From Thermoanaerobaculia bacterium (GTDB lineage Bacteria; Acidobacteriota; Thermoanaerobaculia; Gp7-AA8), in the NCBI GenBank assembly GCA_038244815.1, contig JBBRTB010000016.1, positions 29,056-93,055 of the forward strand: DNA of 64,000 bases, written 5' to 3'. Below are positions 3,372-24,422 of this stretch, in pieces; positions within the stretch are counted from its first letter, which is position 1, and each line of letters starts with the position of its first letter. The notes under the pieces were generated by a model. It did not search any database, was not told where the DNA came from, and saw only the letters and a list, made by a program, of their open reading frames with translations. A program made the translations under genes and the position numbers.

Positions 3372-4249
3372 CTATGGCCATTCAGGATTTGCGCCGCCGG
3401 TTCGACGCCTTCTGGTTCGCCGGGGAGAGCAGAGCCAACCTCGTGGTGACGCGCGTGCTTCTGGCTGGTACTGCGCTGTGGGTGGTCCTCTCGCGATACA
3501 GGCTTCCGTCGATCGTGGCGTTCCCTCCGGAGATGTGGAACCTCGTTTCGTTCGCGCGGCGCGTCCGGTTCGGATACTTTCTCGACGTCAATGCCGAATA
3601 TGTCCTCTTCGTTCTCCTGCACCTCACGTTGATCGCCGCGATCTTCGGCCTCGCTCCCCGGCTCAGTTGCATTTTGAGCGCGCTCCTGCTCGTCCACTTC
3701 GCGCCGCTGGAGACGATCCTCTGGACGCCGAATCCCTACCTGAGAGGACTGACCATCCCGGCGCTCGGTTTGTTTGTGTTCGGTGTTGCGGGAGGGCGCG
3801 AGCGGCGGCGGTGGCCACTGGTGCTGACGCAGCTCTTCTTCGCGCAGATCTACTTCTTCGCTGGCTATTCGAAGCTCTTCACCGGCGGCTTCGGCTGGGT
3901 AACGGCATCGAACATCCGCGGATACCTCCTGATGCTCAACCAGTTTCTCGAGTTTCCGAGGACGCAGATCGGCTACGCCCTGGCGCCGTATCCGCTCGTC
4001 TGCGCGGGGATGGCCTGGGCTGGAATCGTGTTCGATCTCCTCTTCCCCATCGTTCTCTTCAAGCCATCGACACGGCGCTTCATGCTGCCGCTGGCATTGC
4101 TCTTTCACATCGCCAACGCGGTCGTCTTTCACGTCGTCTTCCAGGACACGGTGCTCCTCTTGATGTTCGTGAACTGGGAGCCGCTCGCCGCGCGCGTTCG
4201 CGGCTGGACGCCGGCGGCCTGGCGGCGGCCCGTGGGAGAGGCATCCTGA
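3368..4249 (+). CDS. HTTM-domain membrane protein (vitamin K-dependent gamma-carboxylase / SdpB-like), copy 1
   Basis: The N-terminal RFDAFWF pattern, the FFAGYSKL motif, multiple TM helices and a C-terminal VNWEP motif are typical of bacterial HTTM proteins. Confidence 0.65.
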   Translation: MTMAIQDLRRRFDAFWFAGESRANLVVTRVLLAGTALWVVLSRYRLPSIVAFPPEMWNLVSFARRVRFGYFLDVNAEYVLFVLLHLTLIAAIFGLAPRLSCILSALLLVHFAPLETILWTPNPYLRGLTIPALGLFVFGVAGGRERRRWPLVLTQLFFAQIYFFAGYSKLFTGGFGWVTASNIRGYLLMLNQFLEFPRTQIGYALAPYPLVCAGMAWAGIVFDLLFPIVLFKPSTRRFMLPLALLFHIANAVVFHVVFQDTVLLLMFVNWEPLAARVRGWTPAAWRRPVGEAS

Positions 4250-5708: not shown

Positions 5709-6570
5709 CCTCGACGATCCCGTCGGAACAGTAGAGCCGTATCCCGTTCGCGGTGACCTCGTGCGTCCCTGGCCGCCTGCCGTGCCGCTCCATCGAGTAT
5801 GTCCGGGCTCGTCCCATCGGCAGCGCTGCTCCCGTGGGATCGCGATAGAGCGATCCGAAGAGTTGCGCGGTGCCGGAGACGAAATGCCAGGTGCGCTCCG
5901 CGCTCCACTGGTCGAACGGCACGCGCCATGATGTCGAGCGCGGAGAAGGGCGGCTCGTCGCCAATGCCGGATCCTGGGCCCGCCGCGGCGCCGTGCCCGC
6001 GGCAATGGCTGCGAGTGCGGAGGACAACTGCTTCGCACCGCGTTCGGCAAGCGTGAAGTAGACGTCGACGATCGACTGTCCACGCGCGACCGGCATGCTT
6101 TCCTGCGCGACGATGTCGCCTGTATCCACCCCGGCATCGAGCCAGTGGACGGTCGTCCCCGCCTCGCGTTCATCGTCGTAATACGTCCAGAACAGAGGAT
6201 CGGATCCACGCAGGCGAGGGAGCAGCGACTGATGCAGGTTCACGCCACCGTTGTGCGCGGAAGCGATCAGCGCCGGTGAGAGCACGTGCGGGAACGTAGC
6301 GATCACGATCAGATCGATGTCCAGCGCCCGTAACTCCGCAGCGGTGCCCTCGGCGCTGTACACGACAGCCGGAATGCGCTGGTCGCGCGCGGCGCTCACG
6401 AGCGGATCGGCGGGAAGTCGCCCCATCAACTGCTTCAACCGGGCGCGATAACCGAGGCGGCGGCGGGGAGTGACTACGACGGCAACGCCATGATCGCGCG
6501 CAATCTCGCGAAAGACCGTGACCGAGAGCGGGCTGCCTGAGCCGAAGAATGCGATTCGTTGGCGCAACAC
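5695..6570 (-). CDS. Formyltransferase (Fmt / ArnA N-terminal-domain family)
   Basis: The HQSLLPRLRGSDPLFW motif matches the folate-dependent formyltransferase signature (HxSLLPxxRG). A GTG start is used. The gene is convergent with and overlaps the end of HTTM copy 2. Confidence 0.65.
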   Translation of the reverse strand: MLRQRIAFFGSGSPLSVTVFREIARDHGVAVVVTPRRRLGYRARLKQLMGRLPADPLVSAARDQRIPAVVYSAEGTAAELRALDIDLIVIATFPHVLSPALIASAHNGGVNLHQSLLPRLRGSDPLFWTYYDDEREAGTTVHWLDAGVDTGDIVAQESMPVARGQSIVDVYFTLAERGAKQLSSALAAIAAGTAPRRAQDPALATSRPSPRSTSWRVPFDQWSAERTWHFVSGTAQLFGSLYRDPTGAALPMGRARTYSMERHGRRPGTHEVTANGIRLYCSDGIVEVTPP

Positions 6571-8301: not shown

Positions 8302-8377
8302 TGGAGCCGTTGACCGGACTTGAACCGGTGACCTGCTGATTACGAATCAGCTGCTCTACCAACTGAGCTACAACGGC
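8302..8377 (-). tRNA. tRNA-Thr (anticodon CGU)
   Basis: The reverse complement GCCGTTGTAGCTCAGTTGGTAGAGCAGCTGATTCGTAATCAGCAGGTCACCGGTTCAAGTCCGGTCAACGGCTCCA folds into a canonical cloverleaf. The anticodon loop is TTCGTAA. CCA is encoded. Confidence 0.85.
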
Positions 8378-8739: not shown

Positions 8740-8816
8740 GCGCCCTTAGCTCAATTGGACAGAGCATCAGACTTCGGATCTGAGGGTTGGGGGTTCGAGC
8801 CCCTCAGGGCGCACCA
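8740..8816 (+). tRNA. tRNA-Arg (anticodon UCG)
   Basis: GCGCCCTTAGCTCAATTGGACAGAGCATCAGACTTCGGATCTGAGGGTTGGGGGTTCGAGCCCCTCAGGGCGCACCA has a 7-bp acceptor stem. The anticodon loop is CTTCGGA. CCA is encoded. Confidence 0.85.
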
Positions 8817-9834: not shown

Positions 9835-10066
9835 GTCTTCGCCGCGTGCTACGATCCGTCGCCTGACACGCTCGGAACGCCTCACGCTCAGCGCATGCGC
9901 CGTCGTCTCACTGGCCTTACGATGCGTCGCCTTTTCCCGCTACCGCTTCGACTCGGACGAGCCCCAGCACCTTCATGTCGCGTGGGGCTGGACTGCCGGC
10001 CTCCTGCCGTATCGCGACTACTTCGATAACCACGCGCCTCTGTTTCAACTGCTCACGGCGCCCCTG

Positions 10067-11473
10067 TTGGCCGCACTCGGCGAGCGGTCGAACATCCTGT
10101 TCTTCATGCGCGCGGCCATGCTGCCGCTGTTCGCCATCGTGCTCGCGTGCACCTACCTCCTGGCCCGGCAGATGTACTCGCAACGCGTGGCCCTCTGGTC
10201 GGTCGTGCTGCTCAGCCTCTTTCCGCCGTTCTTCCTCAAGTCGATCGAGTATCGGACGGACAATCTCTGGAACGCGTTCTGGATGATGGCGCTTCTGGCG
10301 CTGGTCTCAAGACCGCCCACGTGGCGCCGCTGGTTCGCCGGCGGATTCCTTCTCGGGTGCGCGCTGGCGGTCTCGATGAAAACGATCCTGCTGGTGGTCA
10401 CGCTGGCGGGTGCGGGCCTGATCACCCGTTACGTGCTGCGCGATCGAACGCGCTTCGCAATCCCAGCCCTCGCCGCGGCCGGCGGGTTCGTCATCGTACC
10501 TGCGATCCTCAGTTCGTACTTCATCGCCGTGGGAGCCTGGCGCAACCTGGTCTACTGCGTGATCACGTTCAACACGCTCATTGAGAAGACCAGGCCGGAA
10601 CTCACCATCCAGCGCTATTTCTGGCCGCTGGCCATCGCGGCGATCGTCCTCGTCGCCCGCAGACACCCCACCGCGAGCGTGCGACGGATGTTCTGCGCGA
10701 CGGCTGTGGCGGTCTTCGCCGTGACCCTTCTCGGCTTCTGGCTCCTCGTTTCCCCTCGCGACATGTTGCCGATCATGCCCATCGGAGCGATCTTCACGGT
10801 CGCTGCGCTCGAGCGGTTCGATGAGCGAGTGCTCATCTACTCGATCACCGCCGCGGTGCTCACGATCGCACTCTTCCACTACACCAGCCGGTTTCAGAAT
10901 CGAACGCGAGCCTTCGTCACGATGATGGATCAGGTCCTTCGTCTGACCCGCCCGGGCGAGCCGGTCATGGACATCAAAGGCGAGACGATCTACCGCCCGC
11001 GTCCTTACTACTACATCTTCGAATTGATCACGCATGACGCCATGGCCAACGGGCTGCTCCCCGACCGTGTGCCCGAGGCGGTCGTGGCCGCGCGGTGCCA
11101 TGTGGCGCAGGCCGATGGACGAGAGTTTCCTCCACGCGCCCGGGCATTCCTCAACGCGAACTTCATGGACCTGGGCCGGCTGCGCGCGGCCGGACAGTGG
11201 CTTGCCGCGGACGGTTCGTTCACGATCGCCGTGCCGGGGCGCTACGTCGTCATCCAGACCCACGGCGAGGCCGGTGGAACGTTGGACGGATCCGAGTATG
11301 AAGGGGCCCGGGATCTCGCGGCTGGAGCACATCGCTTTGTTCCGCTCCGGCCCGGTGAGCGGCTGGCCGTGTTGTGGGCGCCGGCGTTCGAGCGCGGCTT
11401 CTCGCCGTTCCACCTTCAGGACCGCGACTTCAGGTCAAGAGGCCGCCACTCACATTCAAGACGGTTCCTGTGA
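10067..11473 (+). CDS. Polytopic membrane glycosyltransferase-like protein (GT-C fold, PMT/ArnT-like). The true start is probably upstream.
   Basis: 12 or more TM helices. The frame is open back to 9830. The motif FSRYRFDSDEPQHLHVAWGW...LPYRDYFDNHAPLF lies upstream of the first canonical start (TTG 10067). Confidence 0.5.
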   Translation: MAALGERSNILFFMRAAMLPLFAIVLACTYLLARQMYSQRVALWSVVLLSLFPPFFLKSIEYRTDNLWNAFWMMALLALVSRPPTWRRWFAGGFLLGCALAVSMKTILLVVTLAGAGLITRYVLRDRTRFAIPALAAAGGFVIVPAILSSYFIAVGAWRNLVYCVITFNTLIEKTRPELTIQRYFWPLAIAAIVLVARRHPTASVRRMFCATAVAVFAVTLLGFWLLVSPRDMLPIMPIGAIFTVAALERFDERVLIYSITAAVLTIALFHYTSRFQNRTRAFVTMMDQVLRLTRPGEPVMDIKGETIYRPRPYYYIFELITHDAMANGLLPDRVPEAVVAARCHVAQADGREFPPRARAFLNANFMDLGRLRAAGQWLAADGSFTIAVPGRYVVIQTHGEAGGTLDGSEYEGARDLAAGAHRFVPLRPGERLAVLWAPAFERGFSPFHLQDRDFRSRGRHSHSRRFL

Positions 11474-17780: not shown

Positions 17781-18812
17781 TTGCAATCGCTCAATGTCGT
17801 GATCGACGGCCGGCCGCTCGTGGGGAACCGCACCGGAGTCGGCGTGCACACCGCCGAGATCGCGGCACGCCTGCCGTTCCAGCCCGCTCCGCTCATCGCC
17901 TCGCATGCGCCCATCGAGAACCGCGATCGCGTGGAGCACTGCCGGTTTGCTGTCGATCCGTATCCGCTGGGCGTGCTCTGGCAGCAGCTCCGGCTTCCCC
18001 GCATCGACGGCGATGTCGTCTGGGGACCTCACGGCACACTGCCCCTTGCGCTGCGGAAGCCAGCGGTCGTCACGCTCCACGACTTCACCTCCATCACCAT
18101 GCCGGCACGCCACAAGCTCAGCACCATCCTGTCGTTCAACCTTTTCATCGGACGCAGCCTGGAAATGGCCGGACGCGTAGCGGCGGTCTCGCGCGCCGTG
18201 GCAGCGGAGGCAATCCGCGGCTTCGGCGTGGCGCCATCGAAGATCGAAATCGTGCCGAACGGGGTCGACGACTTCTTCTCGCCTGGCGATCACGATGGCG
18301 GCGGCTACATCCTGTTCGTCGGTACGCTCGAGCCGCGCAAGGGCCTCGGCGATCTGGTCCGCGCGTGGTCCGCACTGCCGGCGCCGCGGCCGCGGCTTGT
18401 CCTCTGCGGAGACCGCGGATGGAGAACACGCGTGCAGAATCTGCCCGGCATCGAGTGGACCGGATACGTCACGCGCGAACGGCTGCGCGATCTCTATCGC
18501 GGCGCGCTGCTCTTCGTCTATCCCTCACGCTACGAGGGATTCGGGATTCCGCCGCTCGAGGCGATGGCGTGCGGCGCGCCGGTGGTGGCGACGCGGACCG
18601 GCGCGACAGCCGAATATGCCGGCGACGCGGCGCTGCTCGTCGATCCCGGGGACACCGAAGCGCTGCGCCAGGCCATGTTGCGGCTGATCCGTGATGGGTC
18701 GCTGCGCGACGAGCTGCGCGGCCGTGCCATCGAGCGCGCCGGCCTGTACCGGTGGGACGCGAGCGCACGAACAATGACAGAGCTGCTCCTGGAGGCAGGG
18801 CGGTGCGCGTAG
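17781..18812 (+). CDS. Glycosyltransferase family 4
   Basis: [18 protein letters not shown] motif. 343 aa. Confidence 0.75.
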
Positions 18813-19834
18813 CCATCGACGCGCGCAAGATCGCCGATTTCGGCATCGGCACGTACATCCGCGGCCTGCTGGGCGGTCTCCTGGAGATCGGCGGCGACGA
18901 CACGTACATCGTCCTCGCTCCGGCCTCCGCGCGCGACCTCGTGCCCGTACCGTTCGAGCACGTCGTGCTGGAGACGCCGTCGTATTCGGTACGCGAGCTC
19001 GTCTCGGTCTCGCGCGCGGTCGAGCGGGCCCGCGCCGACGTGTTTCACTCCCCGCACTACGTCGTTCCGTTCACGCGACGCCCCACCGTGGTCACCATCC
19101 ACGACCTCATTCATCTGCACCAGCCGATGAAGAACCGGCTGGTGCCACTGTACGCGCGGATCATGATGCAGCGTGCGGTACGCAAGAGCGCGCGCGTGCT
19201 GACCGTGAGCGCGGCCGTGAAGAATCAGATCATCCTGGAGCTGGGATGCCCGGCTTCGAAGATCGCGGTGACGCACAACGGAGTCGACGAGGTCTTTCGG
19301 GGCGGCCGGCCCAACCGTTCACCCGCGCACTATTTTCTGTTCGTCGGCAACGACAAGCCCCACAAGAACGTCGACCGGGTGGTGGAGGCCTATGCGATCG
19401 TGCGCGCCGTGATGCCGGCGTCGTCCCTGGTTGTGGCCGGAAGTCCATTCCGCAGATTCGGCGCCCGCGAGGGAGTGATCACGCCGGGCTTCGTAACCAC
19501 GGCCGAGTTGTCCTCGCTCTATCGCAACGCCATCGCGCTCGTGCAACCGAGCCTGGAGGAAGGGTTCGGACTGCCGGCGCTGGAGGCCATGAGCTGCGGC
19601 ACGGCCGTGATCACGTCGCACGATCCCGCGCTCGTCGAGATCACCGCGGGTGGAGCGCTGAACGTCGACGCGCGTTCCGTTCGCGAGATCGCCGGAGCCA
19701 TGCAGTTGCTGGCCGGCGACGACGACCTTCGCATGACTCTGGCCGCGCGCGGAATCGAGCGCGCTCATCGCTTCACCTGGCGAGAATGCGCGCGCGAAAC
19801 GCGGCGCGTGTATCGCGAGACCAGCATGTCGTGA
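18803..19834 (+). CDS. Glycosyltransferase family 4
   Basis: The GTG start overlaps the upstream stop. [18 protein letters not shown] motif. Confidence 0.75.
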
Positions 19835-19899
19835 GTTGCTCGAGTTGTGGAACTCCGTGGAACAGCATGCTTTTGATTTCGATTTTGATAAACAAATGC

Positions 19900-19930
19900 T
19901 TGACAATATCGTTTAAACATCGCATATTAA
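19900..19930 (+). promoter_or_regulatory. Sigma70-like promoter inside a local AT-rich island
   Basis: TTGACA at 19900-19905. A -10-like CATATT/TATTAA follows 17-19 nt later. The context is AT-rich in an otherwise GC-rich genome. Confidence 0.35.
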
Positions 19931-20118
19931 TGCCAACAAAATGATGATCGCCAGAAACTGGTCGATACAAGCAGCGACTGTAGATGGTCATCAGCATCGC
20001 TCTCTCCAGGTTTTTTCCCCCCTCACATCGCATACACAAGTTGCCGGAGCGATCCGGTGCTTTTTGCCAAGTAGGCGCGACCGGGAGGTCCCGTACGGCA
20101 TGAAAGGTGGTGAGCTCG

Positions 20119-20178
20119 ATGGCCGCGAAGAAGAAAGCTGCTAAGAAGTCCAGCAAGAAGTCGTCGAAGAAACGCTAA
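20119..20178 (+). CDS. Tiny polybasic peptide ORF (MAAKKKAAKKSSKKSSKKR, 19 aa)
   Basis: An AAGGTGG Shine-Dalgarno sequence lies 9 nt upstream of the ATG. A TAA stop is followed 30 nt later by an intrinsic terminator. The ORF is below the size cutoff of the supplied ORF track. Confidence 0.35.
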   Translation: MAAKKKAAKKSSKKSSKKR

Positions 20179-20207
20179 GATCATCACCATAATCTGGGGA
20201 GTCTTCC

Positions 20208-20240
20208 GAGGGGCCCGTTAAGGGCCCTTCGTTTTTTCTC
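20208..20240 (+). terminator. Rho-independent terminator
   Basis: GAGGGGCCC-GTTAA-GGGCCCTTC hairpin followed by GTTTTTTCTC. Confidence 0.5.
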
Positions 20241-20256
20241 TCGTACAATCGCACTG

Positions 20257-22161
20257 GTGACTCCCCGATCACTTCGCGGCGCGATTGCCGGCCTTCTCTG
20301 CACCGCACTGATCGCCGCGGTCTCTGTGAGCAACGAGACCTATTTCGGCGCTGAGTGGCTGCTGCGCGATTGGATCTCCGCCCGCCTGGCTGTACATCGC
20401 CAACCGGACCCACGCATCGTCCTCGTGCCCATCAGCGATTCCGCCGCGCGCGTACTCGCCGACTATGGGCGACCGCAGAGCTACACGCGCGAGCTGTACG
20501 CCATGGCCATCGAAGAGCTCCGCCGTGCCGGTGCCGTCGTGATCGCAGTCGACCTCCTGCTCGCCGAAGAAAACGTGGCCGATCCCGCGGGCGACCGCCG
20601 CCTCGCCGAGGTCCTGCGCACCACACCTGCGATTCTCGGTGCCGAGACGATGGCTCCCAACGAGCGCGCCGCAGCTTCCGCGCTGGCACCCGATCTCGTC
20701 TGGTCCATCCGCGGCGAAACGCAACTCCAGCCGAAACACGCCATCCTCCCGCGCTTTCCCGCCCCGATCGGCACGATGCGCATCGCCTCGTCACCGTTCT
20801 CCGCGAACGTGCACACCTATCCGATGGTCGATCGCGTCACCAACGGCTTCGTGCCGAGCCTGGCCGCGGAGATGGCCCGGCAGTTTCTGCACGCGCGCCC
20901 TGAAGCGTCCGTCGAAGGCTCCTCCTTCGTCTTCGACAGCCGCTCCGTTCCCGTCGATGACCATCTGACGATGGTGATCCGCTGGCACGGGGGAGCGGGC
21001 TCCAGCCAGGGGCTGAGCTACAAGGCCGTCGACTTCGACAAGGTGATCGTGGCGGCGATGGCGCGCAACGATCCGTCGGCCGGCGTCAGCCCCGAAACTT
21101 TGGCCCGGTTCGAAGAGCAGTTCCGCGGCAAGCTCGTGCTCATCGGGCAGACCGCGGTGGGCCTCGATCTGCGCGCCACGCCGCTCTCGCCCACCGCCGC
21201 CGGCGTGGAGATCCACGCCAACGCTGTGGACAATCTGATCAACGGCCACTTCGACGCCGTGGTCGATCGCTGGCTGGTCTTCCCGCTCATCGCCATCATG
21301 GCGGCGCTTCTCGGCGCGCTGCTCGACCGGATCCGCGGCCAGCTCGCCGCCGCCGCGGTGACGATCCTGTTCGTCGCCGCCGCACTGGGCGTCCTCTACG
21401 CCTCGGCAGGCGGAGGGCACATCCTGCCGGCCTTCGCTTCGATCGCGTCGCTGGTGGCGACCTACATCGTGCTCACGGTCATCAACCTCATCTCCGAACA
21501 GAGGCAGACCGCGCTGCTGCGCACGACCTTCGGGCGCTACGTCTCTCCGCAGATTCTCGACCACATCCTCGCCCATCCCGAGAAAGTGCATCTCGGCGGC
21601 GAACGGCGCGATCTGACCATTCTCTTCTCCGACATCCGCGGCTTCACATCGATCTCCGAGGCCTCAGAGCCCGAGGAGGTCGTGGAGATGCTGAACGAAT
21701 ATCTGACCCGGATGGTGGAGATCCTGCTCGCCCACGGCGGCACGCTGGACAAATTCATCGGCGACGCCGTGATGGGGTTCTGGAACGCCCCGGTCCTCGA
21801 TTCCGATCACCCCCGGCATGCCGTGGCCTGCGCCATCGAGATGATCCGCGAGACCGCCGCGCTGCGCGAGCGCTGGACAGCCGTGGGAAAGGCGGCCATC
21901 CGCATCGGCATCGGCATCAACACCGGCGAGGCGGTGGTCGGAAACATCGGCGCCGAGAAGGTGTTCGGCTATACCGTGATCGGCGACGCCGTCAACCTGG
22001 CTTCGAGGCTGGAGAGCAAGAACAAGGACTATTCGACGGAGATCATTATCAGCGAGTTCACCCGGGCGAGAATTGGAGACGCGGTCGAGTCGTTTTACCT
22101 CGACGAGGTCAAAGTGAAGGGTAAAGAAAAGGCGGTCAAGATCTATGAAGTCCGTGGCTAG
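20257..22161 (+). CDS. CHASE2-domain class III adenylate/guanylate cyclase
   Basis: N-terminal periplasmic CHASE2-like region, TM segments, and a C-terminal cyclase domain (FSDIRGFT...FIGDAVM...GDAVNLASRLE). GTG start. Confidence 0.8.
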   Translation: MTPRSLRGAIAGLLCTALIAAVSVSNETYFGAEWLLRDWISARLAVHRQPDPRIVLVPISDSAARVLADYGRPQSYTRELYAMAIEELRRAGAVVIAVDLLLAEENVADPAGDRRLAEVLRTTPAILGAETMAPNERAAASALAPDLVWSIRGETQLQPKHAILPRFPAPIGTMRIASSPFSANVHTYPMVDRVTNGFVPSLAAEMARQFLHARPEASVEGSSFVFDSRSVPVDDHLTMVIRWHGGAGSSQGLSYKAVDFDKVIVAAMARNDPSAGVSPETLARFEEQFRGKLVLIGQTAVGLDLRATPLSPTAAGVEIHANAVDNLINGHFDAVVDRWLVFPLIAIMAALLGALLDRIRGQLAAAAVTILFVAAALGVLYASAGGGHILPAFASIASLVATYIVLTVINLISEQRQTALLRTTFGRYVSPQILDHILAHPEKVHLGGERRDLTILFSDIRGFTSISEASEPEEVVEMLNEYLTRMVEILLAHGGTLDKFIGDAVMGFWNAPVLDSDHPRHAVACAIEMIRETAALRERWTAVGKAAIRIGIGINTGEAVVGNIGAEKVFGYTVIGDAVNLASRLESKNKDYSTEIIISEFTRARIGDAVESFYLDEVKVKGKEKAVKIYEVRG

Positions 22162-22909
22162 CTGCATATTGTTGCTCGCCAGCGCGACCATGCTGCACGC
22201 GTCGCCGGCACTCTTCAGTCCCGGATCCGAGTCGAGATGGATCGTAACGCGCGGCTCGTCGCCGGCCGGCACGCTCACCGTCCTCACCGGCTCCACGGGA
22301 ACCCGCGCCGAGCTCCGCTCTCCATCAGGCTCCCTCACCACACTCCTCGGCGGCAACGGGAGCGTGTGGATGCGCACGAGCAGCGGCGATGTCGAACTGT
22401 CGTCACTCAGCGCCGCGACTCCGGAAACAACCGTAGCGGCGGCACTGCTCCTGCCGTTCACGACCACCAAAGGCGATACCGTGGAAACGAAGAAGGGCAA
22501 GGTGGCCACGTACGCGTTCCGCGGAGCTGCCGCCCGCTACACGTTCGACGGGAAGGGTCCGGCAAAGGTCGAAGTCGACCTCGGCGGCACGCCATACACG
22601 CTGACGCGCAAATCGCTGTCGAGCACCTCGGCCGACGCCTCGACTTTCGCGATCCGGCCGAAGAAAGGCACCGCCTCCCGGCTGGCCCGCCTCTCCGGCG
22701 ATCTCCTCGGACCCACGGATACGAGCGTGTCGGCGACGGCTGGTGGTAGAGGCGCAGGGAACACCGGACTCAAACTCAAGGACGGCGGCGACTACGCCGC
22801 CGTAGAGAAGCTCGAAAAGCGCGACACGGCCTGGAAAGCAAAACTCGATCAGGCTCTGACCGATTTTCAGCAGTCGGGCAAAGTCGGCAAAGCGCGGGAG
22901 GATCGGTGA
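22145..22909 (+). CDS. Secreted hypothetical protein
   Basis: Signal peptide. Rich in Ser, Thr and Gly. Overlaps the neighbouring starts and stops. Confidence 0.45.
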   Translation: MKSVASCILLLASATMLHASPALFSPGSESRWIVTRGSSPAGTLTVLTGSTGTRAELRSPSGSLTTLLGGNGSVWMRTSSGDVELSSLSAATPETTVAAALLLPFTTTKGDTVETKKGKVATYAFRGAAARYTFDGKGPAKVEVDLGGTPYTLTRKSLSSTSADASTFAIRPKKGTASRLARLSGDLLGPTDTSVSATAGGRGAGNTGLKLKDGGDYAAVEKLEKRDTAWKAKLDQALTDFQQSGKVGKAREDR

Positions 22910-23751
22910 TGAAGAGACTCACAGGCATCGCCACGGCCCTGGCGCTGACGGTCGCAGCATCGGCACAGGCGCAGTTCGGCGACATCCTCAAAAGACTCGA
23001 CCCCAGCAAGATCAAGAAAGGGGCACAAGTCGTCCATCAGGCTTCACACGAATTCACCGAGGATGAGGAGGCGGACATCGGACGGGTCGTGGCCGCGCGC
23101 ATCCTGGCGACGTATCCGATGGCAGGCAACGACAAGGTGCAGAAGTACGTGACACTGGTCGGCAACACCGTGGCGGCGTACAGCACGCGCCCCACGCTGG
23201 AGTGGCACTTCGCCGTCATCGAGGCACCCTTCGTCAACGCCTTTTCGGCGCCGGGCGGCTTCGTGTTCGTCACCACCGATGCGCTCAAGCAGATGCATTC
23301 CGAAGCGGAGCTCGCCGCCGTCCTCGGCCACGAGATCGCACACGTGACACAGAAGCACATTCTCAAAGAGGTCAAACGCGCCAACACCATCAATGCCGGA
23401 GTCGATCTGGCCAAAGCGAGCTCGGGCGGCTCGTTCCTGACCGACGAGATGGGCGAGAAGATCGGCAAGATCGCGTACGAGAAGCTGTTCACAACCGGTC
23501 TGTCCCGCCGCGACGAGGAGGAAGCGGACACGATCGGCACCGAGATCGCCGGCCAGGCGGGCTACAAGGCCAGCGAGTTCCTGACCTTCCTCGAGGATCT
23601 CAAGAAGCTCGAAGGCTCGAAAGAAACGAGCATGCTGACGGCGACGCATCCGAGTCCGGACGACCGGATGAAGTACCTCCGCCCGAAGCTCAGGAACGAC
23701 AACGGCGGCGTGGTCCTGGCGGAACGCTGGGTCGAGTGGACGCGGTCCTGA
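22906..23751 (+). CDS. M48-family zinc metalloprotease (signal peptide present)
   Basis: HEIAHVTQKH HExxH motif with a downstream E. 281 aa. Confidence 0.75.
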   Translation: MMKRLTGIATALALTVAASAQAQFGDILKRLDPSKIKKGAQVVHQASHEFTEDEEADIGRVVAARILATYPMAGNDKVQKYVTLVGNTVAAYSTRPTLEWHFAVIEAPFVNAFSAPGGFVFVTTDALKQMHSEAELAAVLGHEIAHVTQKHILKEVKRANTINAGVDLAKASSGGSFLTDEMGEKIGKIAYEKLFTTGLSRRDEEEADTIGTEIAGQAGYKASEFLTFLEDLKKLEGSKETSMLTATHPSPDDRMKYLRPKLRNDNGGVVLAERWVEWTRS

Positions 23752-23756
23752 TCGTC

Positions 23757-24422
23757 ATGCGCAAGACCACGCTCGCACTGATCTTTCTGTTGGCCACCGC
23801 CCTCCCCGCGGCCGCGGAGCAGGTGCGTCACACGTTTCAGTCGTCGGTCGCGCGCGGCGACGTACAGCGCGTGATCATCGATGTGCCCGCCGCGGATGTC
23901 GGCATCCGCAACGGTGCCGGCGACAAACTGGCGGTATCGGGATGGGTCTCCCGCGATCCGGACAGCGACCGCAACCGCGACAAGGAGCAACGCATCGTTG
24001 ACGACACATCGGTCGTGATCGAGGTGAAGAACGGCGAGGCCACGGTCCGCCGCCAGTTCGGACCACAGGCGCAGAGCTGGCGCGCCGGCATGTTCAGCAA
24101 CTACCACGTGACGGTGGAAGTGCCGCGCGGTCTGAACATCGACGTGCAGACGCGGTACGGCGACGTCACCATCGAGGGAAGCTTCGGCGACATCGACGTC
24201 GACCTGCGTGCCGGTGACATCGATGTGCGCATCCCGAAAAAGGACGTGCGCCAGCTCAACGCCTCGGCACGCATCGGCGATGTACGTACGCGGATCGGCG
24301 ACGAGATCGTGCAGCGCGAAGGGGTGTTCCCCGGCAAGACGCGATACGCGAACCCCGAGGGACGCACGATCGTGAACGTGCACGTGACCGCCGGCGACGT
24401 CAACGTGGATTTGACGCCGTAG
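23757..24422 (+). CDS. Secreted beta-rich protein (DUF4097-like putative adhesin fold)
   Basis: Signal peptide. Repeated GDV/IDV strand motifs (GDVTIEGSFGDIDVDLRAGDIDV). Confidence 0.45.
   Translation: MRKTTLALIFLLATALPAAAEQVRHTFQSSVARGDVQRVIIDVPAADVGIRNGAGDKLAVSGWVSRDPDSDRNRDKEQRIVDDTSVVIEVKNGEATVRRQFGPQAQSWRAGMFSNYHVTVEVPRGLNIDVQTRYGDVTIEGSFGDIDVDLRAGDIDVRIPKKDVRQLNASARIGDVRTRIGDEIVQREGVFPGKTRYANPEGRTIVNVHVTAGDVNVDLTP

Follow-up and report, generated by a model that had tools for sequence, protein, structure and literature searches.

We have found, in a 64,000 bp stretch of the genome of a Thermoanaerobaculia bacterium (Acidobacteriota; contig JBBRTB010000016.1 of the assembly GCA_038244815.1, positions 29,056 to 93,055 of the forward strand), what is very probably a real and translated gene for a peptide of only 19 amino acids. 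We call the whole stretch the window and number it from its first base. The gene is located in a gap of 422 bp between two larger genes (window 19835-20256). An open reading frame (ORF) on the forward strand, from an ATG at 20119 to a TAA at 20176-20178, codes there for MAAKKKAAKKSSKKSSKKR, a peptide consisting nearly entirely of lysine, alanine and serine, with ten lysine or arginine residues and no acidic ones. Comparison with more than 110 related loci indicates that selection acts on the reading frame, the charge and the composition of this product and not on its exact sequence or length. An earlier reading of the same DNA, made from the letters without database searches (the sequence-only reading), had proposed an unannotated microprotein gene at this place. 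The proposal holds, since the ORF is open in 112 of the 113 complete instances available, its length changes are in frame and the substitutions include synonymous ones.

Comparative evidence for the coding frame

The ORF is closed on both sides. A GTG at 20107 is in frame with the ATG, an in-frame stop is found five codons upstream of this GTG, and the TAA at 20176 ends the frame, so that the product stands alone. Without its initial methionine, the window peptide reads AAKKKAAKKSSKKSSKKR. In four syntenic loci (L002-L005) the 19 amino acids are unchanged, though the cyclase encoded downstream of the mini-gene is only 66-76% identical to that of the window. Specifically, the window and L002, with cyclases that are 75% identical, differ at eight codons of the ORF and all eight differences are synonymous, including two that involve more than one base (TCG to AGC for serine and CGC to AGA for arginine).

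We scanned metagenomes with a 30-nt motif of the leader, GCCAAGTANGCGCGACCGNGAGGTCCCGTA, located entirely 5' of the Shine-Dalgarno sequence and independent of the ORF. The scan gave 116 loci that, together with L002-L005, the locus L066 and the window itself, make 122 instances. The ORF was intact in 112 of them, cut by a contig end in nine and decayed in a single one. The sequence-only reading had named frameshifts or stops inside the ORF of related genomes as the mark of a non-coding region; of the 113 complete copies, only one is decayed. This exception (L193, reverse strand, approximately 9913-10192) has kept the promoter, the leader and the Shine-Dalgarno sequence, and an internal deletion takes MATKK straight into the terminator.

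The 94 unique full-length ORFs code for 47 distinct peptides of 18-30 amino acids, among them MAAKKGGKGGTKKGGAKKSSKKK and MAASKKSSKASSSKKSSSSSKKSSSKKK, and all the differences in length are in frame. The residues after the methionine are limited to lysine (48%), alanine (26%), serine (14%), glycine, threonine, proline and arginine, the last one below 1%, and aromatic residues are absent from the family. All the peptides start with MA(A/T/S)(K/S)K, and the C-terminus is nearly always KKK, KKR or a lysine-rich end with glycine (KGK, KGR). The consensus is MAxKKKAxxKKxxKKSSKKK, with only six invariant columns in the alignment, and the lysine doublets are regular, with two to five small residues between them. 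Of the 94 unique ORFs, 92 (98%) end with TAA. Within identical peptides there are 38 codon sites with synonymous variation, including TCR/AGC switches for serine and CGC/AGA switches for arginine. Because these switches within six-fold families are synonymous in this frame only, they support it specifically. No stop interrupts the body of the ORF in forward frame 1 or in antisense frame 1 either, as a result of its AAG-rich composition. Coding in the antisense or in a shifted frame was rejected: no start, Shine-Dalgarno sequence or stop is conserved in those frames, where the serine and arginine switches and the exchanges among A, S, G, T and P would be radical changes.

A different set of loci, reached through a DUF4097-like protein encoded downstream and therefore chosen without use of the ORF or of the leader motif, gave the same picture. 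All of them carry the mini-gene, and two (L243 and L244) combine a diverged leader motif with new peptide variants, MASKKGGKASAKKSSASSSSKKSSKKK and MASKKGGKAPAKKAAGGSKKASKKK. Comparative proof of protein-level selection with this strength (more than 110 loci and 47 variants) is unusual for a low-complexity ORF of 19 codons.

A single-gene transcription unit

The arrangement of promoter, Shine-Dalgarno sequence, ORF frame and terminator is far beyond chance, and the same set is present in more than 110 related loci. The sequence-only reading had described these elements within an AT-rich island, and our analysis recovers them with some additions. The guanine plus cytosine (GC) profile drops to 0.455-0.545 across 19800-20299, compared to 0.65-0.71 in the flanking genes. 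The promoter is of the sigma-70 type, with a -35 box TTGACA (19900-19905), a spacer of 17 nt and a -10 box CATATT (19923-19928), and matches the consensus at 10 of 12 positions. In the 2-kb region the scan found two promoter-like sites, against 0.3 expected from shuffled sequences, and TTGACA-17-CATATT is present in 112 of the 116 related loci that could be assessed. From its position, transcription would start near 19935. The AT-rich stretch that abuts the -35 box, TTTTGATTTCGATTTTGATAAACAAATGC (19868-19899), is kept in the syntenic loci as GATTTTGATAAACAAATGC and, being located where an UP element is expected, may act as one.

The Shine-Dalgarno sequence AAGGTGG (20104-20110) is part of an extended version, AAAGGTGGTGA (20103-20113), found 5 nt before the ATG and essentially invariant in the 98 aligned sequences. 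It is complementary at nine of ten positions to the 3' end of the 16S ribosomal RNA (rRNA). At the other end of the unit, the intrinsic terminator (20207-20237) consists of a 10-bp stem with eight GC pairs (20207-20231), a loop of 5 nt and a run of six T. Four pairs of this stem show compensatory changes in the alignment, in 12, 6, 2 and 2 sequences respectively. Among 106 loci where a promoter was identified, 89 have the motif GGGGAGTC followed by a hairpin and a run of at least four T; in the other 17, that stay outside this count, the terminator pattern failed or a contig end intervened. Since the promoter is kept in those 112 loci, the terminator stem covaries and the gene found downstream varies, the comparison indicates that 19900-20237 is a self-contained unit with a single gene. 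Besides, four features appeared here that the sequence-only reading did not have: a 5' hairpin, two hairpins with GNRA loops, an invariant TGGGGAGTC and a GT4 glycosyltransferase gene that ends at 19834.

The leader and the 3' untranslated elements

The leader predicted for the related loci has between 127 and 200 nt (median 185), and that of the window approximately 185 nt. Near its start in the window, GATGATC and GGTCATC form a hairpin (19943-19992) that encloses approximately 36 nt and was detected by comparing by eye the window, L066 and L004. The pairing is retained in L066 despite changes in both arms (GATGACC/GGTCGTC), as judged by eye. The hairpin has been deleted in L004 and L005, and is thus dispensable. 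Next to it, a C/U-rich linker (20000-20029) is predicted by RNAalifold and by partition functions to pair with a GGGGAG at the 3' side of the transcript. In the RNAalifold consensus, columns 32-35 pair with 323-326 and each of these four pairs is kept in 86-94% of the sequences, and the partition functions of 89 single sequences have on average 4.7 of the six GGGGAG bases paired with the 5' region. This long-range pairing is a prediction only, as the invariant partner cannot covary.

The first of the two GNRA hairpins (hairpin 1, GCCGGA-GCGA-TCCGGT, 20043-20058) was picked up by a scan for terminator-like structures and presents compensatory changes, from C-G to U-A in eight sequences and from A-U to C-G in four; in L243 and L244 the stem is GCCGAA/TTCGGC, with a change from G-C to A-U. 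In the window it is followed by CTTTTTG (20060-20066), which makes it similar to an attenuator. A run of at least five T follows the hairpin in 42 of 89 sequences and one of three or fewer in 36 of 89. Given these short runs, the idea of a conserved attenuator was rejected in general. The decayed copy L193 has lost this run too.

Hairpin 2 (GCC-AA-GUA-...GACC-GGGA-GGUC...-UAC-GGC, 20066-20099) was found in the centroid and minimum free energy folds and in the alifold consensus, and abuts the Shine-Dalgarno sequence on its 5' side. One position of its loop varies among G, U and A and is GNRA-compatible in every sequence. Its core, GCGCGACCGGGAGGTCCCGTA, is unchanged in L243 and L244, loci that were fetched independently; elsewhere its invariance was partly imposed, the hairpin having served as a search pattern. 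Between the stop codon and the terminator, TGGGGAGTC (20195-20203) is identical in 98 of the 98 aligned unique sequences and also in L243, L244 and L247, and its G-run is the partner predicted for the C/U-rich linker. Another element of this region, TCATCACC (20181-20188), is complementary to the GGTGGTGA of the Shine-Dalgarno sequence, and the minimum free energy fold of the window pairs both. It is limited to the sub-clade of the window, most relatives carrying TCATCGAC at this place, and sequestration of the Shine-Dalgarno sequence by TCATCACC was rejected as a general feature.

With such elements around the ORF, the main product might be a structured RNA, either small or dual-function, translation being secondary and serving for example the stabilization or regulation of the RNA. 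The compensatory changes of hairpin 1 would fit, as would hairpin 2 and TGGGGAGTC, invariant across 98 unique sequences while the peptide drifts, and the long-range pairing of 5' and 3' ends predicted for almost every sequence. At roughly half of the loci, hairpin 1 and its T-run could even release an RNA of approximately 130 nt. However, the start, the Shine-Dalgarno sequence, the frame, the composition, the TAA and the whole-codon changes in length are all kept, and a non-coding RNA needs none of them. The search pattern accounts for part of the invariance of hairpin 2, and the fold of the whole transcript is no more stable than those of shuffled sequences (z = -0.95). The element belongs to no Rfam family: nothing relevant was found in the whole window at the gathering threshold or in 19700-20400 at E<=10, where the lone match was a chance snoRNA fragment (E = 6.1), and ARAGORN detected no transfer RNA (tRNA) or tmRNA in the gap. 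We consider an RNA as the main product quite improbable. With the peptide as the product, the structured leader and its pairing with GGGGAG would most likely contribute to mRNA stability or to the translational control of a heavily used message.

Gene neighborhood

The gene located upstream of the mini-gene codes for a GT4 glycosyltransferase (18752-19834, Pfam) and is conserved in 102 of 105 loci. Downstream, the CHASE2 cyclase announced by the sequence-only reading is confirmed by Pfam as a protein with CHASE2 and class III cyclase domains, with its gene starting at 20257 and ending at 22161; it shares 100% identity with a protein of an NCBI/Logan assembly, and its homologues are annotated as Thermoanaerobaculia, Acidobacteriota. 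The same reading had suggested that the mini-ORF might be a leader peptide whose translation, through its lysine codons, controls read-through into the cyclase gene. In the window, the ORF, the terminator and the start of the cyclase follow one another within 80 nt, and a short ORF rich in one amino acid before an intrinsic terminator is also what is found in classical attenuators of the trpL, hisL and pheL type. However, the cyclase is directly downstream in only 13 of the 72 loci that could be assessed. The next gene codes for a DUF4097-like protein of approximately 228 amino acids in 38 of 63 loci, and a convergent gene is found in at least 16. Unlike the case of the attenuators, no downstream operon is conserved, the downstream genes are unrelated to lysine and its metabolism, and the composition of the peptide is itself under selection, with non-lysine positions limited to small residues and both ends conserved. 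The alifold consensus contained the terminator and no anti-terminator pairing, no dedicated search for alternative folds having been made. Because the cyclase follows in so few loci and the next gene varies, the leader-peptide proposal was rejected, the terminator also coming after the ORF; we consider it extremely improbable, and the adjacency to the CHASE2 cyclase appears to be incidental.

The window does have a DUF4097 gene (23757-24422), 51% identical to the one in L066 and located 3.5 kb beyond the mini-gene. What lies in between (20257-23751) is a block of three genes, namely the cyclase, a protein of 254 amino acids with no Pfam match and an M48 peptidase. A minority of the relatives have this block there, suggesting a lineage-specific insertion or else a loss elsewhere.

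Two minor observations concern these neighbors. Within the start of the cyclase ORF in the window (20251-20266, GTGACTCCCCGA), the piece GACTCCCC is exactly the reverse complement of GGGGAGTC (20196-20203); other loci with the cyclase do not have GACTCCCC, and the complementarity is probably a coincidence. On the other hand, L243 (1-664) and L247 (89-877) carry a cluster of rpmF (coding for L32), yceD and plsX on the opposite strand, approximately 5 kb upstream and past three GT4 genes. It was the only translation-related neighbor seen, and it is not adjacent to the mini-gene.

Nature of the peptide and comparison with known systems

The sequence-only reading had considered a nucleic-acid-binding or a ribosomal microprotein. 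That the product is a microprotein is supported by all the above, and the ribosomal role fits poorly. It would make the peptide a stoichiometric component that fills a pocket of the rRNA in the manner of bS22/eL41/mS38, bL37 or Thx. Such proteins (24-35 amino acids and more than 50% basic in the case of bS22/eL41/mS38 and bL37) are similar in size and charge, are coded by small independent genes and are routinely missed by annotation; it took cryo-electron microscopy to discover each of bS22, bL37 and bL38. The bS22 of Borrelia, with 61% lysine plus arginine, was discovered by this technique together with a translated genome search in a phylum where it was not expected, and it has been predicted in more bacteria. 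The strong promoter, the strong Shine-Dalgarno sequence, the TAA stop and the biased codons of the mini-gene would also be appropriate for a ribosomal protein.

However, known proteins of this kind have conserved sequences, form helices within rRNA pockets and contain arginine and other residues, whereas the family described here keeps only its composition and the spacing of its lysines. Close relatives present 47 variants of 18-30 amino acids, compared to a bS22 that is almost invariant within a genus (one substitution across Borrelia), and some of the variants have GG, P or runs of serine that make them unfit for a fixed helix in a pocket. Arginine, that together with aromatic residues is typical of peptides that bind rRNA, is below 1%, and aromatic residues do not appear. 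The similarity to a profile and the near invariance among relatives expected for the bS22/eL41 type were both lacking. No match to Pfam or NCBIfam at E<=10, ribosomal protein models included, was found for seven peptides of this kind: the peptide of the window in its GTG-extended form, two orthologues from Thermoanaerobaculia and, from other phyla, four of the analogues described below. When 37 peptides of the family were combined into a profile, none of 177,635 distinct PDB sequences matched it at E<=10. The filtering of low complexity may lower the sensitivity of these searches. Finally, the analogues in other phyla are located outside ribosomal operons, and some genomes have tandem copies. 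A stoichiometric ribosomal protein is thus, in our opinion, unlikely. A looser, salt-labile association with the ribosome is possible.

The closest resemblance in composition is to the histone H1-like tails of bacterial proteins, such as the HU extensions of actinobacteria and Deinococcus, AlgP of Pseudomonas and Hc1/Hc2 of Chlamydia, that bind DNA or polyphosphate electrostatically. The low-complexity alphabet (K, A, S and P) and the KK-xx-KK rhythm of lysine doublets are the same, and acidic and hydrophobic residues are likewise absent. The difference is that the tails extend a folded domain or belong to proteins of approximately 100 or more amino acids, whereas here 19 amino acids with their own promoter, leader and terminator, and with no folded domain, are the complete product. 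H1-like tails are not known as stand-alone 19-mers. ScvA of Coxiella burnetii and the eukaryotic protamines are also tiny, basic, disordered peptides, that condense DNA and are linked to developmental stages. They are comparable in their very small size, their high charge and a presumed role in charge neutralization. They are rich in arginine (and ScvA in glutamine) instead of lysine, their sequences are unrelated, and for the mini-gene there is no known stage-specific context. Our literature searches on lysine-rich or polybasic small bacterial proteins gave no description of such peptides. Taken together, these comparisons suggest a new and unannotated family among the small basic microproteins, set apart by a conservation that affects composition only.

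A possible role as a free polycation

The fixed high charge, the regular lysine doublets, the interchangeability of A, S, G, T and P and the variable length all point to a disordered polycation that acts through its charge and not to a peptide made for one specific pocket. The product, with its ten lysine or arginine residues and no acidic ones, would be abundant and intrinsically disordered, as a free version of the lysine- and alanine-rich tail of the histone H1 type. It would bind the polyanions of the cell in a non-specific way (RNA and ribosomes, the nucleoid, polyphosphate) and neutralize their charge. We regard such a mechanism, leaving the target open among RNA or ribosomes, DNA and polyphosphate, as having slightly better than even chances.

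Several points weigh against this interpretation. The choice of target, whether RNA, DNA, polyphosphate or another, is deduced purely from composition. The nearly constant linkage to a GT4 cluster could hint at a connection with the envelope or with exopolysaccharide rather than with nucleic acids, a linkage that these closely related genomes may also owe to common descent. Conservation is stricter in hairpin 2 and TGGGGAGTC than in the sequence of the peptide, and because of this the RNA itself may carry part of the function. Lastly, codon usage (TAA in 98% of the ORFs against 14%, AAG for lysine 87% against 70%, GCA plus GCT for alanine 52% against 21%) fits a heavily translated message, with values that are relative to a crude reference, namely the full set of long ORFs in the window, which includes some that are not genes.

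Analogous ORFs in other lineages

A scan of genomes with the query MAAKKKAAKK indicates that the gene of the window is not an oddity of one clade. The figures that follow were obtained among the 120 matches listed (L007-L126). At least 88 stand-alone ORFs of 10-45 amino acids (median 22) were found in 86 of these 120 loci, with 54% lysine and 33% alanine. They belong to Dormiibacterota, Eisenbacteria, Gemmatimonadota, Planctomycetota and Alphaproteobacteria of the Reyranella type, and also to Actinomycetota, Terriglobales, many Patescibacteria and DPANN archaea. In all, at least ten other phylum-level groups carry similar ORFs. Examples are located at positions 5748 and 6148 of L011 (reverse strand), 2978 of L018, 2518 of L026 and 4588 of L007. 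A Shine-Dalgarno-like sequence is present 4-16 nt upstream in 80% of the analogues, compared to 17% of random positions. We have inspected five of the lineages, and in each of them the ORF has its own conserved leader and terminator, with synonymous changes and in-frame changes of length, and the untranslated regions have no similarity between lineages. Tandem copies were found in L011 (approximately 400 nt apart) and L096 (95 nt apart), and in L010 a second copy is cut by the end of the contig. Composition alone cannot settle whether the analogues are homologous or convergent. By exact look-up, ten such peptides of 20-41 amino acids were absent from a collection of 15 billion proteins.

The neighbors of the analogous ORFs were of little help. 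Among 131 of them there was no common family and no ribosomal operon, and guilt by association across phyla was discarded. In addition to the stand-alone ORFs, MAAKKKAAKK is also the N-terminal tail of proteins of other genomes that were recognized by eye as HU, SWIB and biotin-carboxylase types. Because the same stretch forms these tails, it would be a reusable module for binding polyanions, similar to the histone H1-like tails of bacteria. In Dormiibacterota (L011, L015, L034, L042, L093, L113 and L118) we observed that the 3' untranslated region contains ACTTCTTC(A/T)TC, complementary to the run of lysine codons GAAGAAG that ends the ORF, followed by a conserved hairpin GCCGGGGTTCTGTGG(A)GCCCCGGC. 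Through this complementarity the 3' region may fold back over the ORF.

We tentatively propose, as a possibility that we would still hold to be doubtful, that the window gene is one representative of a very widespread and essentially unannotated class of ribosomally made microproteins similar to polylysine, which would form an abundant pool of peptide counter-ions to RNA, DNA or polyphosphate. The examples have 10-45 amino acids, approximately 55% lysine and mostly alanine in the rest. Such a class would be comparable to polyamines or protamines, with the difference of being genetically encoded. If abundant, these peptides would add a polycation so far left out of account to the charge balance of the cytoplasm, the nucleoid, the ribosomes or the polyphosphate granules, above all in little-studied soil and candidate phyla. 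That very small basic proteins are easily overlooked is well known, and selection on charge or composition rather than on sequence escapes the ordinary homology tools. Gene callers would miss the class through their length cut-offs, and tryptic proteomics would also miss it, trypsin shredding the peptides. The analogues provide candidates in organisms that seem to be cultured: one (L045) is from the named strain Vineibacter terrae CC-CFT640, and isolates of Reyranella, Gemmatimonas and planctomycetes are possible ones.

Other features of the window and of related loci

No other polybasic mini-ORF was found in the whole 64 kb of the window. The only Rfam and ARAGORN matches in it are two divergent tRNA genes, a tRNA-Thr(CGT) at 8302-8377 on the reverse strand and a tRNA-Arg(TCG) at 8740-8816 on the forward strand. 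In three of the related loci, gene callers have placed hypothetical ORFs of 54-56 amino acids in the leader region and missed the mini-ORF (L243 5610-5780, L244 4495-4659 and L245 4050-4214); these calls are probably spurious. In the distant locus L006, with a cyclase 60% identical to that of the window, synteny has been lost and a repeat array upstream of the cyclase replaces the mini-gene. The array (3583-3966) is made of tandem units of 21/42 nt (GCGGAAAAACCGCCTCCGCCGCGATCCAAACCGCCTCCGCGA), the 42-mer being present in 3.8 copies with 96% matches, and is flanked by short repeats of the CGTCCTATC type.

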